A DNA stretch of 46,337 bases, from IMG/VR virus record IMGVR_UViG_2740892428_000001, positions 1 through 46,337 of that record, one strand, 5' to 3'. The notes beneath the pieces were generated by a model. That model saw only the letters and a list, made by a program, of their open reading frames with translations, did no database searches and was not told the origin of the DNA. Within the stretch, counting starts at the first letter, position 1. Each line of letters opens with the position of its first letter. Below are positions 2,732-37,981 of this stretch, piece after piece. The translations under genes were made by a program, and so were the position numbers. Source of the DNA: a virus (taxonomy: Duplodnaviria; Heunggongvirae; Uroviricota; Caudoviricetes).

Positions 2732-5130
2732 TTAATACTCCCCCCCATTTGCGCATCAGTTAATTCTTTATGCCAGAGACGAAGATTTCTCAAATGGCCG
2801 AATAGATGACGAGTTCCCGATGTGGCTTGACCTCCAATTCGAATAAAGGTCCGTGTTTTTACGCCCGTCCACTCCGTTTTCATAGTTTTAGTAGCCTCAC
2901 CGTTAGAAACTACTCGTTTAGTACCATCAGAATAAATATTAAAACCACCAATGAATTTTCGAACATCAGTTCGACCAGCAAACACACTAGAAACGTAAGT
3001 ACTTGTCGACGCTTTATAAGTTTGCATATAAAGCTGACCGTAATATTTCTCAGTTGTGTTAAAAGCGTATGTAATTGACTCAATAGGTGGCACACCAGAA
3101 AAATCAAAAATACGCGGTGCTACATTAGGAGGAATATCGCCCCAATTTCTATTAACCTCGACAAGACACGTAAGCGGTCTATTATAGATATTATTTTCAG
3201 TTGGGATCGTCACCATATCACTGGAGCGGGTTGCGGGTGCAGTTGTCGTAATAACAAAAGATGAAGCACATCCGCCGTTTTCAAATTGTGGTGTTGCAAG
3301 GTAAATATAATCTCCCGCTTCAGTTATACCACCTTTTTTCGGCGCATACTGAATCATTGCGCCAATTAAGGTTTCACCTTCAACAGCTTCTATAGTTGCC
3401 TCATAGAAAATCCACCCTGTAACCGGATCTTTAGTTGCAGTAGCTGCTATTCTATTGGCTGCTCCGCCAGTTTTTTCTATTATCAGAGTTCCGAAAGTTA
3501 AATAAGCATCTCCTAAAAATGTATAAACCGACCCATCGTATTTTTCAAAACGCAAACGACAACGAAGACCATCAGGAGCTTTAACCCTGCATGAAACAGT
3601 GCAATACTTATTATCGCCACTAACATCAATCCCCCGGGATGCACTGCATGTATGCAGACTAAGTGCAGATGATTGTCCTGTCATATTATCTTTTGTTCGC
3701 ATTTTGGCATATGAAAAACCAAATTCATCAACACCATTATTAGTTTTATCGATATTGCTGGTACTCGTCCATTCAGCGGGAGTATTGGATTTAACAAAAT
3801 AGTTAGTGCGCTGTCCTTCAATCAATAAACCTTCTTTTTCAAATCGTGGTTCATCAATTTTAGCAACACTAAATACGCCTGATTTATTGATATATGTGGC
3901 AGTTGATGCGCGTTTAAACTTAACAACCTTGTCGCCAGGCATCGTTATTTCATCATCACCAATAACAATTTTTTTATATGACGGCGAAAAGCCCGTAATC
4001 ATATCCAGTGAATCGTTAAACGGTATCCACACATCAGGCAGTGGCTGTAAGACATATTTATACGGCTCTGCTGCCTGGCTTGCATACTCTCTGGCTGCGT
4101 CTTCACTTGCTTTAGCTGCTGTCTGGCTTGCTGCCGATGCTTTCGCCGAGTTCGCCGCTGCAGTCTCGCTTGTCTTTGCATTGGTTTCACTGGTTTTTGC
4201 TGCTGTTTGACTGTTGGCTGATGCAGTGGCAGAAGCAGCCGCCGCGCTTGCAGAACCAGCTGCAGCACTCTCGCTTTGGGCTGCTGCATCCTGACTGTTT
4301 TTCGCCGCAGTTTCGCTGGTTTTGGCATTCGTTTCGCTGGTCTTCGCTGCCGTCTGGCTGGACTTTGCGTTAGTTTCACTCGTCTTCGCAGCTTTCTGGC
4401 TGTTAGCCGCAGCAGTTGCTGATCCAGCTGCTGAAGTCGCAGAACCGGCTGCCGCGCTCTCGCTTTGGGCTGCTGCAACCTGACTGTTTTTCGCCGCAGT
4501 TTCGCTGGTTTTGGCATTCGTTTCGCTGGTCTTCGCTGCCGTCTGGCTGGACTTTGCGTTAGTTTCGCTCGTCTTTGCGGCTGTCTCGCTGTTTTTCGCG
4601 TTGGTTTCTGATTTTTTGGCTGCTGTCGCGGAGTTTGCCGATGCAGTCTGCGAGGACGCTGCCGCCTGTGCGCTGTTAGCTGCATTCGTTTCTGAGGTTT
4701 TCGCCGCGTTCTTCGATGATGCCGCTGCAGTTTCGGATTTCTTTGCCGCCGCTGCGCTCTGAGAGGCGGCTTCGGCGTTGCGTGCCGCTTCTTCCACCAT
4801 TGCCTCAAAACGACGCAATGCCTCCGGCATGACATCATCTTCCGTCATGGCACCGAGAAAATCATTCAGCGTACCTGGTCTGGAACCTTCATAGACGGTA
4901 ATGGTTCCGGCATGTGAAGGCGGAAAACCTTCAACCAGCAGGGTGACGCTGTACTGGCCATGCTCAACATCCATGCTGTAACGCCCGGCTTCATCCGGAT
5001 TTTCAGAGGCCACCGTGTTCACCAGTACCGTGGTGCTGTTACGCTTTGCCTTCAGTTGAATAGTGCAGTTCTGTATTGGTTTTCCCGCACCATCTTTCAG
5101 CACACCTGAAATCTGTACTGCCATATTCAC
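2728..5130 (-). CDS. stf: side tail fibre protein, mosaic: lambda Stf-like N-terminus plus Ala/Ser/Thr-rich repeat shaft plus unrelated C-terminal domain
   Basis: 800 aa; N-terminus (MAVQISGVLKDGAGKPIQNCTIQLKA...) near-identical to lambda Stf as recalled; central TAAKTSETNAK-type low-complexity repeats; C-terminal ~330 aa unrelated to lambda Stf. True start may be the Met 2 codons downstream (5124). Confidence 0.85.
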   Translation of the reverse strand: MNMAVQISGVLKDGAGKPIQNCTIQLKAKRNSTTVLVNTVASENPDEAGRYSMDVEHGQYSVTLLVEGFPPSHAGTITVYEGSRPGTLNDFLGAMTEDDVMPEALRRFEAMVEEAARNAEAASQSAAAAKKSETAAASSKNAAKTSETNAANSAQAAASSQTASANSATAAKKSETNAKNSETAAKTSETNAKSSQTAAKTSETNAKTSETAAKNSQVAAAQSESAAAGSATSAAGSATAAANSQKAAKTSETNAKSSQTAAKTSETNAKTSETAAKNSQDAAAQSESAAAGSASAAAASATASANSQTAAKTSETNAKTSETAAANSAKASAASQTAAKASEDAAREYASQAAEPYKYVLQPLPDVWIPFNDSLDMITGFSPSYKKIVIGDDEITMPGDKVVKFKRASTATYINKSGVFSVAKIDEPRFEKEGLLIEGQRTNYFVKSNTPAEWTSTSNIDKTNNGVDEFGFSYAKMRTKDNMTGQSSALSLHTCSASRGIDVSGDNKYCTVSCRVKAPDGLRCRLRFEKYDGSVYTFLGDAYLTFGTLIIEKTGGAANRIAATATKDPVTGWIFYEATIEAVEGETLIGAMIQYAPKKGGITEAGDYIYLATPQFENGGCASSFVITTTAPATRSSDMVTIPTENNIYNRPLTCLVEVNRNWGDIPPNVAPRIFDFSGVPPIESITYAFNTTEKYYGQLYMQTYKASTSTYVSSVFAGRTDVRKFIGGFNIYSDGTKRVVSNGEATKTMKTEWTGVKTRTFIRIGGQATSGTRHLFGHLRNLRLWHKELTDAQMGGSIK
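4268..4645. repeat. in-frame tandem duplication (2 x 189 bp) inside stf
   Basis: 4268-4456 and 4457-4645 are near-identical over ~125 bp (ctctcgctttgggctgctgca...gactttgcgttagtttc); period 189 bp = 63 codons. Confidence 0.8.
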
Positions 5131-34120: not shown

Positions 34121-34770
34121 GCCGCCATCTCCCTGACCAGTTTTTCCGCCTGCTGGCGAACCTGCGCCAGAAACGCCTCACCACATGCCTCAAGTTCATC
34201 GCGCCCGATGTAGCTGATTGCCGGTCCCTTCCAGGTCTTGTCGAAAACAGCAATAGCACCAGCGAAGAAAGCGCCTGTCGGCACCTGCTTCTCATCTTTC
34301 GGGATAAACCAGGCAGGCAGTTCAAAACCAATACGCCCGCGAATAAAAGCAATATGATCTGCATCTTCCGGCCACCACACTTCGCTGGTGGCAGCTTTGA
34401 TCAGGAAAACATAGCGCCCGCCTTTATCACGCATGGCACTGGCATGTTTCATGATGTAACGCATGCCGGTGATGTATTGCCCCTCATGCTGACTGGCGCG
34501 GCTGTATGGGGGATTACCAAAGGCAGCACCTTTAAGCTCCGCAAGACGTTCTGACCAGTCATGCGCCAGCGCGTTGTCTTCCGCAGTGTAATAAGCGGCA
34601 CATTTGGCGTTATCACCATCAGTGAACAGATCCAGAACAAACGGGCCAAACAGGGTGTTAATTCCCCAGAAAATGTTATCCGGCGTGCGCCACTGATCGC
34701 CCACTTCCTTCAGTTCATGGGCTGGTTTGTTCCGCAGTTCCACCAGCGCCTGGCAATATTTATTACTCAT
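34117..34770 (-). CDS. phage DNA N6-adenine methyltransferase (Dam-like)
   Basis: NPPY motif (FGNPPYSR); ATG at 34770 with a GGGGG RBS overlapping the upstream stop (TAATG); the six-frame ORF extends to 34803. Confidence 0.8.
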   Translation of the reverse strand: MSNKYCQALVELRNKPAHELKEVGDQWRTPDNIFWGINTLFGPFVLDLFTDGDNAKCAAYYTAEDNALAHDWSERLAELKGAAFGNPPYSRASQHEGQYITGMRYIMKHASAMRDKGGRYVFLIKAATSEVWWPEDADHIAFIRGRIGFELPAWFIPKDEKQVPTGAFFAGAIAVFDKTWKGPAISYIGRDELEACGEAFLAQVRQQAEKLVREMAA

Positions 34771-35264
34771 TAAGCCCCCACGAAATTCCCTGACAGATAC
34801 CACTCTTCACCCGATGCAGCGCGCTTGCTGCTTTTCCGTAAGCACCGCTCACGACGTGCCAGAAAATTGTTTCGTTCTGGCTGGGAGTGGCTTTCACGGA
34901 ATGCCGCCATCCACACGGTTGCAGCACGACGGTATAAGCCCCTTGACTCCAGTTCTTCAGCCTGGCGGGTCAGGCACAAAATCACCCGGGGATCGTTAGT
35001 GCCGACATAGAAATTGCGCACAGGTCTGGTTTCACGAACTGGTTGTGGTTCCGGCTCCTGCGCTCTCTCAGTCAGGCGTGGGAAATGTCTGCGTGTATCT
35101 CCTTCACAACGGTGAGCCACACGCCCACTCTGACGTAACTTGCTTGCTGACTGCAGAACGCGCTGCCGTGAGTAACCTGCAAAAGCATCCGCAATGTCTC
35201 CGGAAGTACACCCCGGATGGGCTTCAATGAATTTCTGAACTTCATTCAAAAGACTCATGATCAC
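34770..35264 (-). CDS. hypothetical regulator-like protein (winged-helix-like N-terminus; possible PerC-like motif)
   Basis: 164 aa; the C-terminal LESRGLYRRAATVWMAA resembles the PerC-family signature as I recall it (weak); start overlaps the replication-gene stop (ATGA). Confidence 0.4.
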   Translation of the reverse strand: MIMSLLNEVQKFIEAHPGCTSGDIADAFAGYSRQRVLQSASKLRQSGRVAHRCEGDTRRHFPRLTERAQEPEPQPVRETRPVRNFYVGTNDPRVILCLTRQAEELESRGLYRRAATVWMAAFRESHSQPERNNFLARRERCLRKSSKRAASGEEWYLSGNFVGA

Positions 35265-36067
35265 CCCCTGAATCCTGCCGGGATCTGGCTGTAGTCCACG
35301 TTGTCGTAACTGGCTTTGAAGTACGGGTCCTCACGTCTGGCTGCAGATACCGCAGGAACTTCCCAGGATTCTTCGAAATGACGATCCGGGCCAAAGAACG
35401 TGACAGCCTGTTTCACAAATTGTGTGCCGCTGTTACCCATCGCAGATACCCAGCCCGCGTAGCGTTTCACACCTTCCAGCATGGTTTCGGGGTTTACCCC
35501 CTCATTCAAACGGGCTTTCCAGGCTTTGAAGGCTGCAGATTTTGAATTGCCACCAGCACGTTTGGGATATACCAGCCATGCCTGCTCAAACTCCGGAGAG
35601 TATTCCGGTCGGTTTGAACGAACTCGCACGGACTCATCAACTGATGCACCAACAGCTATTGGTTCATTGACTGGTTCAAAAGAGTGACTGGTTCTGGGTG
35701 AATCTCCTGCACTACCCCCTGGTGCAACTCCTGCACTACCTGGTGAATTTGCTGCACCAGATAGTGAATTATTTGCACTACCCCCTAGTGAATCTCCTGC
35801 ACCATCAAGATGAAGGAGATAGATATTACTTGAGTTACCTTTTTCACCTTTCCGGGTGACTTTTTTTACCAGCCCGGACTCACAAAGGGCCGCAATATGA
35901 TTCATCACAGAACGTTTGCTAATCTCGCACTGGTCAGCAATATGCTGGTAGCTGGGCCAGCACTCACCCTGATCGCTGGCATTATCAGCCAGCTTGATCA
36001 GAACCAGTTTTCGCAATGGATTACCCACTCGAATTTTCATCGCTTTAACCATCAGCTCCATACTCAT
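35261..36067 (-). CDS. replication initiator / replisome organiser (O-like), N-terminal HTH
   Basis: 268 aa; N-terminal HTH (NPLRKLVLIKLADNASDQGECWPSYQHIADQCEISKRSV); Gly/Ser/Ala-rich linker encoded by the iteron-like repeats; C-terminal domain. Confidence 0.6.
   Translation of the reverse strand: MSMELMVKAMKIRVGNPLRKLVLIKLADNASDQGECWPSYQHIADQCEISKRSVMNHIAALCESGLVKKVTRKGEKGNSSNIYLLHLDGAGDSLGGSANNSLSGAANSPGSAGVAPGGSAGDSPRTSHSFEPVNEPIAVGASVDESVRVRSNRPEYSPEFEQAWLVYPKRAGGNSKSAAFKAWKARLNEGVNPETMLEGVKRYAGWVSAMGNSGTQFVKQAVTFFGPDRHFEESWEVPAVSAARREDPYFKASYDNVDYSQIPAGFRG
35694..35803. repeat. iteron-like direct repeats (candidate replication origin) inside the initiator gene
   Basis: About four imperfect ~23-28 bp direct repeats of the unit (GGTGAAT)CTCCTGCACTACC(CCC)TGGTG, followed by a short AT-rich stretch; lambda ori likewise lies inside O. 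Confidence 0.5.
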
Positions 36068-36288
36068 GCTGCACCTCCGAGATGCTTCATGTTTTTTCCG
36101 GAGCGAAAGGCTATAAGCGGCATACTGACGCGGTAATTACGGCCCAGCGGTTCACAAATCACCTTCTGACATTCACGGTCAACCAGGCTAACACGTAGAA
36201 CATGCCCTGCAGGTGTGGTGTACCACTGACCCGGACGAGGACAACGGAAAGTCTGATTGGTAAACCGTTTGAAAATATTCCGGATCAT
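36064..36288 (-). CDS. hypothetical small protein, translationally coupled on both sides
   Basis: 74 aa; ATGA overlaps with the upstream Rha stop and the downstream initiator start. Confidence 0.35.
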   Translation of the reverse strand: MIRNIFKRFTNQTFRCPRPGQWYTTPAGHVLRVSLVDRECQKVICEPLGRNYRVSMPLIAFRSGKNMKHLGGAA

Positions 36289-37433
36289 TTGCGCCCCCTT
36301 ACCTCTGAAGGGTTCAGCGACAAATTTATGAGGCAGGCCAGCGCCGAAGCATCATTAATATAGTCATACAAGCTAACAGCCAGCGGAGATTCGGCTTTTG
36401 CCAACATAGGATAAAGCTGCTGCAGCCAGACCTGATGAATTGATGAAATGTAGGAATAGAGAACGCTGGCGTTATGTGCAACGTCGCTCGGTACAGGGGG
36501 TTTTGAAAGCTGTTTCTCCATCTGGTTAAAGGCATTGATATATGCCTCTTTGAACTGGGCAGCACGTTTACCCGTGAAACCCATAGCAAGAAACGCAAAG
36601 CCGTCGCGGGTTATTTGATAGCAAGGTAGTTTGCGGCCTGATGCGTCGATGTACTCACTGAGCTGAAAATTCAGCTCAGTAAATTCGGCAGAGCATTCAA
36701 GAGACGCAATTTTTTGAATGACATTTTTGTGTTGTTTGCCGAAATAACTAGCAACAGCCAGAGAAGAAGTAACAACTTTGTCTGCAATAATGCAAAGTTC
36801 AGGTTGTACTAAGGCAGGGATCGTAGCCATGATGGCAGCCTCCGTATGCAATGGATAACTTCCACCACCGGAAACGCCAATTTCGCTGGTGGTGAACTGA
36901 GCAGGGTTGGCGTAACCGGCGCATACGGAAACCGGCGCACCTTTCGGTGCCCCCACCCAGCCCACCATAATTTGGGTATAGCTGAGTTGTAGCAACAAAA
37001 AAGACGCTAACGCGCCAATTGTCGCCGTATGCAATTCCAGGACGCCAATCCCGGCACCCGCTTTATAAGGTGCCTGAACAGTGTAACGTCCCGGAATGGC
37101 AGAATCAATGTGCTGGTGGTCCTTCACACTCAACAAAATCACGCCTGAATTTCCACAAAGGACTAAAGCACTCATGCGGGTAGTCTTTGCGAAGATAGAT
37201 AACGCGCTGTGTTTCTGGTTCCCAACGAATAACATGAACATAAAGCCCTCTTCCGTCACGAAACCAGCGGTTAAGTTCCTGCACAACTCGCCCCCCACAG
37301 TCAGGTAAAGTTCTCTGTGGTTACTTACAGCCAGGTGATTTGGTAATCTGCATTCATGCCGTAACAACAGGTGTTCAGAGACGCTGACCACCAGCTGTTG
37401 CGACAAACGGTTATTTGCCGTTAAACTGTTCAT
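36285..37433 (-). CDS. Rha-family phage regulatory protein; long ORF whose N-terminal ~200 codons are of uncertain coding status
   Basis: The C-terminal 182 aa (from MATIPALVQPELCIIADKVVTSSLAVASYFGKQHKNVIQKI, internal ATG at 36830 with a GGAGG RBS) is Rha-like; the frame stays open up to an ATG at 37433 that overlaps the YdaT-like stop. Confidence 0.45.
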   Translation of the reverse strand: MNSLTANNRLSQQLVVSVSEHLLLRHECRLPNHLAVSNHRELYLTVGGELCRNLTAGFVTEEGFMFMLFVGNQKHSALSIFAKTTRMSALVLCGNSGVILLSVKDHQHIDSAIPGRYTVQAPYKAGAGIGVLELHTATIGALASFLLLQLSYTQIMVGWVGAPKGAPVSVCAGYANPAQFTTSEIGVSGGGSYPLHTEAAIMATIPALVQPELCIIADKVVTSSLAVASYFGKQHKNVIQKIASLECSAEFTELNFQLSEYIDASGRKLPCYQITRDGFAFLAMGFTGKRAAQFKEAYINAFNQMEKQLSKPPVPSDVAHNASVLYSYISSIHQVWLQQLYPMLAKAESPLAVSLYDYINDASALACLINLSLNPSEVRGRK

Positions 37434-37981
37434 GCGTTAGTTTCTCCACAGACACAAAACGCCACGACGCCCGGAGCTGCACACTCGCGGGCGTCACTCT
37501 TTTCTGGAGCGCAAAAGATTTTGTAGACCAGTGCTGCATGCTCCTGGAGCTTCGAAATTGACAGATACAACTCATCATTAATTGCTGTCTGCTCGTGTGG
37601 CTCCACTACCCCATCTTCGATTGCCGAACGAATCTGTTTTGAGTAACTCCCGATCTGTTCGATGACTTCCAGCAGGCGCTGGTTTATATCGGCGTTCTCA
37701 ACTTCCTCAATGTCAGGAAGCGATACAAACACCCCACCTGCAGACTGTGCGACAGCATCCGCAATGTAGTGAGTGCCAGCCGCGCGCTGTAAAATCATTG
37801 CCCATCCCAGCGGGAAAATCTGATTGCCATCTGCACGAAGGCGGTTGAATAAAGCGTTCTCTGTTACATCCAGCCACTCAGCAGCTTCAGCGTAACCCCC
37901 CGGCAACGCCGCGATAGTTTTTCTGACAGCTTTCACGTACCACTCAGGCTGTTTTTCCACTTTCCAGTGATGCTTACCCAC
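37430..37981 (-). CDS. YdaT-like protein (candidate CII-type regulator)
   Basis: 183 aa immediately downstream of the cro-like gene; resembles YdaT proteins of E. coli cryptic prophages as recalled. Confidence 0.45.
   Translation of the reverse strand: MGKHHWKVEKQPEWYVKAVRKTIAALPGGYAEAAEWLDVTENALFNRLRADGNQIFPLGWAMILQRAAGTHYIADAVAQSAGGVFVSLPDIEEVENADINQRLLEVIEQIGSYSKQIRSAIEDGVVEPHEQTAINDELYLSISKLQEHAALVYKIFCAPEKSDARECAAPGVVAFCVCGETNA

Follow-up and report, generated by a model that had tools for sequence, protein, structure and literature searches.

Where does a lambdoid prophage begin to replicate, and does a tandem repeat within its replication initiator gene mark the place? The question is raised by a 46,337-nucleotide (nt) stretch of viral DNA, analysed here at its full length and termed the window (IMG/VR record IMGVR_UViG_2740892428_000001, positions 1 to 46,337), which represents an Escherichia coli prophage of the mEp460/PhiR63_1/2H10 type. 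Its initiator gene (35261-36067, minus strand) is an open reading frame (ORF) of 268 amino acids (aa) comprising a winged helix, a disordered linker and a C-terminal helical domain, and the part coding for the linker carries an array of short dyads, or iterons, followed in gene direction by a conserved 35-nt element. Judging from sequence and by analogy with lambda, we consider it likely that array and element together form the replication origin of this prophage, which would lie where its own initiator gene codes for the linker and would work like ori-lambda. What is directly observed is how the locus is built, how far its sequence departs from chance, and how it is conserved and co-varies over about 180 loci. 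An earlier note on this DNA had proposed lambda-like iterons inside the gene of an initiator that binds its own coding sequence; the comparative tests agree with this proposal, in which binding and origin activity stay putative.

The array (35698-35802) contains five 15-base-pair (bp) dyads on the gene (minus) strand, of the form GTGCA-N5-TkCAC, with invariant arms and a variable center of five nucleotides. In gene order these are iteron 1 (GTGCAGGAGATTCAC, 35788-35802), iteron 2 (GTGCAAATAATTCAC, 35764-35778), iteron 3 (GTGCAGCAAATTCAC, 35743-35757), iteron 4 (GTGCAGGAGTTGCAC, 35722-35736), and iteron 5 (GTGCAGGAGATTCAC, 35698-35712), all on the minus strand, with start-to-start spacings of 24/21/21/24 bp. 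Iteron 4 is a perfect 5-N5-5 palindrome (GTGCA-GGAGT-TGCAC) that matches on both strands, and iteron 5 starts 17 nt before the 35-nt element. The pattern GTGCANNNNNTNCAC yields six matches in the window, all of them in the array (five sites, the palindrome being counted on both strands), against 0.46 expected by chance; none of 100 shuffles reached six. The earlier note had counted four repeats of a unit of about 23-28 bp; we find five by dyad listing, and Tandem Repeats Finder delimits the same interval (35698-35802) with a period of 24 and 4.6 copies, the period between neighboring sites being 21-24 bp and the informative unit the 15-bp dyad. The repeat strings then cited, CTCCTGCACTACC (two exact copies) and TGGTGAAT, GGGTGAAT and TAGTGAAT, are plus-strand parts of these dyad units, and their assignment to the linker-coding part of the gene holds: the array encodes aa 89-124, between the winged helix (aa 1-88) and the C-terminal helices (aa 158-222), in a tract (aa 91-153) that AlphaFold2 predicts to be disordered, with a predicted local distance difference test score (pLDDT) <50, and that covers both the array and the 35-nt element.

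Homologous genes carry similar arrays. The initiator gene is 96-99% identical in SfV (orf39), mEp460, Ayreon, cdtI, 2H10, the PhiR phages and phages encoding the Shiga toxins (Stx) Stx2c and Stx2a, and 87% identical in ST64B (sb42), which diverges from the window directly past the 35-nt element. The earlier note would have taken absence of the repeats from functional homologues as counter-evidence; the viable phages SfV, mEp460, cdtI, Ayreon, 2H10 and PhiR63_1 all carry them, and cdtI has, by alignment, eight iterons where the window has five. Protein-level searches added phages of Aeromonas, Vibrio, Klebsiella and Stenotrophomonas and further phages of E. coli. All 13 fetched phage homologues contain three to eight repeats at about nt 250-370 of the gene, directly after the N-terminal domain, with a period of 21-24 bp in every case except phiP27, where the N-terminal domain is of another kind and the period is 15 bp. 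The repeats are 5-N5-5 dyads whose arms differ between phages: GTGAY/GTCAC in Vibrio, GGGCA/TGCCC in the Eru5 phage Stx2a_F403, TGCCA/TGGCA in Klebsiella, TGCCG/..GCA in Stenotrophomonas, and GTGGC/GCAAC in mEp021.

So that the DNA features would not themselves govern the choice, we also assembled an unbiased sample of 80 gamma-proteobacterial loci, taking one genome per species and using as query an alignment of the N-terminal 88 aa only; the taxa included Pseudomonas, Enterobacter, Xenorhabdus, Providencia, Aeromonas, Shewanella, Marinomonas, Aliivibrio, Avibacterium and others. In the zone between the N-terminal domain and the conserved element, at the 70 loci where the element could be placed, all but one (69/70) have at least three copies (three to seven, mode five) of a 15-mer family, against a mode of two in flanking coding stretches of equal length. 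Of 254 intervals between sites, 248 measure 21-24 bp, and 53 of the 70 loci yield a dyad-symmetric consensus (at least four of five pairs). Variants of the E. coli gene, encoding 242-302 aa, carry 1, 2, 5, 7, 8 or 10 iterons (P0042, P0030, P0035 and P0001 among them), and one such length variant has lost the last iteron together with the conserved element.

The coding properties of the array indicate what is being conserved. Sites fall in more than one codon phase at 46 of 69 loci, with a typical spacing of 23/22/21/24, so that a single gene translates the same motif in two frames; the Klebsiella phage, for one, has TGCCA-N5-TrGCA encoding P-M-P-S-D-G at one site and V-C-H-E-I-A at the site that follows. 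Peptides encoded by different iteron types share nothing. As one DNA site occurs in two codon phases and specifies wholly different peptides, selection acts on the DNA and not on the peptide, and the linker, if disordered as modelled, would be the kind of protein segment that can tolerate constraint at the DNA level.

The arms also vary in step with the predicted recognition helix of the N-terminal domain. Tabulating aa 49-61 against arm sequence at 180 loci, a descriptive comparison that ignores shared ancestry, paired S[KR]RSV[MI]NH with GTGmA half-sites, ..MRH with GTGAC/GTCAC, [ST]R[KT]TAI.H with GTGTA/TACAC, S[KR][ST]AVRNH with TGCCA/TGGCA, SKSAVR[AD]H with TGCCG, and GRSTVKVH with GGGCA/TGCCC. 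A natural chimera (P0063) joins an Eru5 N-terminus and its own GGGCA iterons to the window phage's C-terminal domain. By both the table and the chimera, the iteron sequence is specific to the N-terminal DNA-binding domain and travels with it, which is the pattern expected if that domain reads the sites.

Immediately beyond the array, beginning 2 bp past the last dyad, lies the 35-nt element (35661-35695, minus strand; AGAACCAGTCACTCTTTTGAACCAGTCAATGAACC, codons R125-P136), of which the interval given in the earlier note (35694-35832) takes in just 2 nt, and which is our primary candidate for an unwinding or helicase-entry part. It contains GAAyCAGTmA twice plus GAAyC, and its family form is AGAAyCAGTmACTCTyyTGAAyCAGTCAnnGAAyC. 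Its first 28 nt recur with three or fewer mismatches at 69 of the 80 loci, which had been chosen by N-terminal protein similarity only; several further loci carry indel variants. Conservation extends across Pseudomonas, Vibrio, Shewanella, Aeromonas and enterics, and the distance from the start of the last iteron to the element is 17 nt in nearly all of 180 loci, irrespective of the site sequence. Among pairs of loci with N-terminal coding DNA less than 80% identical, the same codon is used for identical amino acids in 90.4% of cases within the element and 39.6% within the N-terminal domain, amino acid identity being alike in the two regions (73% and 75%, respectively). Conservation ends at nt 35, the last codon being unconstrained at its third base, and the TCTyyT tract stays pyrimidine while the encoded amino acid switches among F, L, S and P. 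Toward the end of the element (35668-35694; homologues L002 and L004), a 12-bp unit, GAACCAGTCAAw (peptide EPVK/EPVN), varies in tandem copy number between close relatives; relative to the window, SfV has one additional copy and PhiR63_1 two. The idea of an internal start or frameshift signal in the element was rejected, since neither the ATG (variable at positions 29-30) nor the TCTyyT tract is constant.

Which side of the array would be unwound is less plainly written in the window. The earlier note pointed to an adjacent AT-rich stretch, and this is real (35803-35845, no strand assigned), lying on the gene-upstream side of the array, and it ranks second among candidates for the unwinding region. 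The conserved wing of the winged helix (GNSSNIYLLHL) is encoded here, with synonymous sites that differ from homologue to homologue. Family-wide, AT enrichment just before the array amounts to +6 to +10 points, weaker than at the 35-nt element, which is the most AT-enriched segment of the gene (+10 to +15 points, 58 representatives). The partner or unwinding element of the array would most likely be the gene-downstream 35661-35695 rather than the upstream AT-rich stretch.

The protein itself has the layout of an initiator. Pfam assigns HTH_36 to aa 17-67 (expectation value [E] 1.7e-11), with a sub-threshold DnaD_N match; PHROG classifies the whole protein as phrog_270, "replication initiation protein" (E 7.7e-88), and matches its C-terminal part to "DnaD-like helicase loader" and "primosomal protein" families. 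The AlphaFold2 model contains a single winged helix, the predicted DNA-binding domain (aa 1-88; 35804-36067, minus strand; pLDDT 80-92 over aa 1-70), with a predicted recognition helix at aa 51-64 (KRSVMNHIAALCES) and a wing at aa 67-85. Foldseek with this model retrieved generic winged-helix domains alone, all weakly (E >= 0.013), and a sequence search of the Protein Data Bank found no relative. The C-terminal domain (aa ~155-268; 35264-35605, minus strand), presumed to recruit a helicase or its loader, is modelled as helices at aa 158-222 (pLDDT 60-76).

The protein ends in SQIPAGFRG (35264-35290, minus strand), and E. coli DnaT in SQIPPGFRG, an 8/9 match at the very C-terminus of both. The IPAGFRG end recurs in the protein of locus L136, there on an unrelated lambda-O-type C-terminal domain, and SQIPAGFRG-type tails are absent from the versions in Aeromonas phage AsXd-1 and phiP27, both of which encode a DnaC-like loader of their own. 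The distribution suggests that the tail may be a portable host-binding motif; domain-level homology to DnaT was rejected, the likeness being limited to the nine-residue tail.

The initiator gene and its neighbors make up a lambdoid early-right operon (minus strand), in the order cI-like repressor (divergent), cro-like, cII-like (37430-37981), Rha/Ash (36285-37433), a 74-aa ORF, the initiator, a PerC/YfdN-like gene (34770-35264), Dam methylase, a LexA-like gene and RusA. Behind the one shared element, 182 loci with complete ORFs divide into seven C-terminal clusters without detectable mutual similarity. At L136 the C-terminus shows homology to that of lambda O (37% over 140 aa, E 3e-22), in an alignment that begins right at the element, and a DnaC-like ATPase gene follows; the Klebsiella-type initiator gene is followed by a gene of the lambda P family (E 1.8e-58). 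The HTH_36-type initiators of Stenotrophomonas phage BUCT708 and of mEp021 have C-termini homologous to that of P22 gp18 (E 3e-17 and 7e-14, respectively), and both genes, like P22 gene 18, precede a DnaB-type helicase gene. The C-terminal type of the window is followed in AsXd-1 and phiP27, though not in the window phage, by a DnaC-like (IstB) ATPase gene. With seven C-terminal modules that include lambda-O, lambda-P-partnered and DnaB-partnered types, the initiator gene is placed at the "O" position of lambdoid replication modules. As their sequences read, natural chimeras swap in a predicted HTH_36-type N-terminal domain, its iterons and the element for the lambda O N-terminal domain, iterons and A-rich tract, ahead of a lambda-O-type C-terminus.

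By analogy with lambda (PMC7466680), we infer protein binding, unwinding, helicase recruitment and origin activity in three steps. Dimers of the N-terminal winged helix would bind the five dyads and wrap the DNA, giving an O-some-like nucleoprotein complex; the dyads lie about two helical turns apart, so that the bound proteins would occupy one face of the DNA. This complex would destabilize the adjacent duplex, most likely at the conserved 35-nt element. The C-terminal domain would then bring in the replicative helicase, probably the host DnaB-DnaC complex, because the early operon contains no loader or helicase gene of its own.

Several observations weigh against this interpretation. The least stable 30-mer of the gene (35816-35845, at the 98th percentile of the window) lies on the opposite side of the array from the element, which is itself only modestly AT-rich in the window (43% GC, 87.5th percentile of instability), and prediction gives no single-stranded DNA (ssDNA) hairpin around the element (z 0.39), nor any significant single-strand structure there (z 0.39 and 0.34). 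The neglect of shared ancestry noted for the helix/arm table tempers what the table can say of recognition. Neither a helicase nor a helicase-loader gene was found in the early operon of the window, so that recruitment is something we infer purely. In some natural variants (P0042, P0030, P0035) the sites number one or two, or the element is missing; such short or element-less variants may be defective prophages, or may indicate that fewer sites are tolerated. Published accounts of Eru phages state that their replication is unstudied and that nothing is known of it (PMC8951638). Finally, intragenic sites could serve autoregulation instead of initiation, or besides it.

This last point can be enlarged into a full alternative, namely that the dyads are autoregulatory operators, or a transcriptional roadblock limiting expression of the initiator, and that the true origin lies elsewhere in the phage. 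We think this unlikely, while granting that dimeric winged-helix proteins on palindromes are typical repressors, that the evidence from AT content and a DNA-unwinding element (DUE) is modest in the window, and that a lone iteron-like site (35093-35107) lies 590 bp downstream in the next gene. A promoter scan found no promoter-like site near the array, and five phased sites with a nucleotide-conserved element at a fixed 2 bp resemble an origin rather than an operator; in relatives, moreover, the gene occupies the "O" position before lambda-P, DnaC-like or DnaB-like genes, and in the window no other iteron-like array or comparable tandem repeat was found in the early region, the only other array lying at 4250-4608. 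Autoregulation could, in any event, coexist with origin function. Far less credible, to the point of being extremely improbable, is a by-product of slippage in a low-complexity Gly/Ser/Ala linker that has no function at the DNA level. Slippage would sit well with the Gly/Ser/Ala/Pro-rich segment, predicted to be disordered, that the array encodes, with copy numbers that vary among close relatives as in slippage-prone tandem repeats, and with spacings in the window that are all multiples of three; it fits poorly with arms invariant even at third-codon positions around centers that alter amino acids, with different peptides drawn from one DNA motif through two codon phases (46/69 loci), with dyad geometry, spacing and distance to the element conserved between iteron types while the peptide is not, and with arm sequences that co-vary with the recognition helix.

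The element, for its part, might be kept at the junction only as a patch of homology for shuffling N- and C-terminal modules, and so be no part of an origin. Seven unrelated C-terminal modules do join one N-terminal family exactly there, ST64B diverges from the window right after it, and the chimera P0063 switches partners at it. A functionless sequence would nevertheless decay, and this one is kept across Pseudomonas, Vibrio, Shewanella, Aeromonas and enterics with 90% identical codons for identical amino acids, at a fixed 2-bp gap from the last dyad, and with a pyrimidine tract that changes the amino acid and not the class of base. As an exclusive account the homology patch seems to us very unlikely, and functional DNA would itself act as a recombination joint, which makes this idea compatible with an origin.

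Sequences around the array offer some further observations. The solitary iteron-like site GTGTATCTCCTTCAC (35093-35107) is inside the PerC/YfdN-like gene, about 590 bp gene-downstream of the array, and agrees with iteron 5, flanks included, at 19 of 23 positions; one-mismatch iteron matches in the window number 17 against 8.6 expected, not clearly above chance, and this site could be a chance occurrence. Beside the AT-rich stretch, and antisense to the initiator, the plus strand (35844-35868) carries a terminator-like hairpin, TCACCTTTCCGGGTGA, with CTTTTTTTAC after it; six terminator-like sites occur in 3.4 kb against 3.3 expected, and this one may likewise be due to chance. The other tandem-repeat array (4250-4608) comprises 1.8 copies of a 189-bp period at 94% matches, within which periods of 42 and 21 bp are nested; it is unrelated, far from the early region and presumably inside a structural gene.

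The initiator family to which this proposed origin belongs is widespread, with roughly 5,000 homologues found, and includes SfV, ST64B, mEp460, cdtI and the Eru6 and Eru5 Shiga-toxin phages, as well as thousands of prophages in Escherichia, Salmonella, Klebsiella, Pseudomonas, Vibrio, Shewanella and Aeromonas. Replication of Stx prophages drives toxin gene dosage, and an origin with its cognate binding domain would therefore give a handle on that dosage. Read in this way, the locus supplies testable minimal replicons, and gain and loss of iterons would explain the length polymorphism of the initiator. The recognition-helix variants paired with their arms are a ready data set on the evolution of winged-helix specificity, and the nucleotide-conserved element points to where an unwinding or helicase-loading step may be sought; further work is best spent on these two, the element and the helix/arm series. 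A bolder conjecture, which we consider less likely than not, is that the 35-nt element is a previously undescribed, sequence-specific origin-opening or helicase-entry module, common to thousands of gamma-proteobacterial prophages whatever their iteron specificity or helicase-recruiting domain. The element would then be read by a constant partner, either the invariant winged-helix part of the initiator acting on ssDNA or a host factor such as DnaB or primase; reading of ssDNA by the initiator would parallel DnaA on DnaA-trios or TrfA on DUE 13-mers, and element and helix/arm table together would provide a large initiator family with a specificity code, natural and ready to use.

As to precedent, the principle of an intragenic origin is classical; for this initiator family, a described or annotated origin was not found in the literature searched or the records fetched. 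A literature search for work that connects iterons to SfV, ST64B, phiP27, mEp460 or Eru phages found none, in coverage that did not extend to the SfV genome paper or to Weigel & Seitz 2006, and no origin annotation was found in the fetched GenBank records of SfV, ST64B, cdtI and PhiR63_1. The latter of those two papers, a review of phage replication modules, may already give predicted origins for "initiator-solo" modules of this type.

Among characterized groups, the window belongs with Eru6 of the Stx phages. The window contains what defines that type, an HTH_36 ORF downstream of the Rha/Ash ORF (36285-37433) in the early right operon; it has the same gene, at 97.3% nucleotide identity to the representative Stx2a_WGPS2 (AP012537), and the same order of cI, cro, cII-like, Rha/Ash, small ORF and HTH_36 protein. 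Eru types were classified by gene content, in an account that is silent on iterons and on any origin (Fagerlund et al. 2022, PMC8951638).

Iteron plasmids (pPS10 and pSC101 RepA, R6K pi, RK2 TrfA) resemble the locus in having direct repeats about two turns apart beside a DUE, and winged-helix initiators. For RK2 and its plasmid relatives, binding of the initiator to one strand of repeated DUE motifs has also been described (PMC4081077), a possible parallel for the GAAyCAGTmA repeats. Iterons of these plasmids are intergenic and usually bound by monomers of Rep proteins that have two winged-helix domains and belong to other families, whereas the sites in the window are intragenic; nor would copy-number control by handcuffing be expected of a lytic phage origin. 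A search of plasmids for small replicons using the initiator gene returned relatives in 39 plasmid records, most of those listed being phage-sized circles of about 40 kb.

P22 provides a phage comparison, with a rep_origin annotated inside gene 18 ("similar to phage lambda") and with iterons and an A-rich tract. Its N-terminal domain is Phage_rep_O (gp18, 6.9e-38), its iterons are of the form TCGGTAAA..TTTACCGA, and its C-terminal type differs from that of the window; BLAST found no similarity between gp18 and the window initiator. After the last P22 iteron (L216, 1889-1912) stands a 10-mer, GAATCAGTCA, in the same relative position as GAAyCAGTCA in the window family. A scan of viral contigs for the 10-mer in combination with the lambda/P22 A-rich tract does not support a shared motif: the matches examined all belonged to P22-type gp18, and the 10-mer looks like an iteron arm of P22 in degenerate form.

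Lambda is the textbook case of an origin lying within an initiator gene. The lambda record annotates the origin inside O, as four 18-bp dyads spaced 20/24/23 bp apart and then an A-rich tract. Common to lambda and the window are an origin (here a putative one) in the middle of the initiator gene, between a DNA-binding N-terminal and a recruiting C-terminal domain, and, in Stx phages as well, four to six dyad-symmetric iterons about two turns (20-24 bp) apart. An AT- or A-rich tract comes next in the direction of transcription in lambda, where the window has the 35-nt element, the most AT-enriched segment of the gene family-wide but only modestly AT-rich in this phage. Iteron number differs between lambda (four) and Stx phages (six; PMC7466680), and in lambda-type relatives, as in the window family, it varies between relatives and lengthens the protein. 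The gene had been called "O-like" in the earlier note, a term that suits its "O" position in lambdoid modules and not its family: the window initiator gave no Phage_rep_O match in Pfam, and its N-terminal domain belongs to HTH_36, not to the lambda O family Phage_rep_O (PF04492). The window phage also has no P-like gene. Its iterons are 15-bp 5-N5-5 dyads in contrast to the 18-bp sites of lambda, and where lambda has a simple A-rich tract beside them, the window has a sequence-specific, nucleotide-conserved 35-mer with GAAyCAGTmA repeats.

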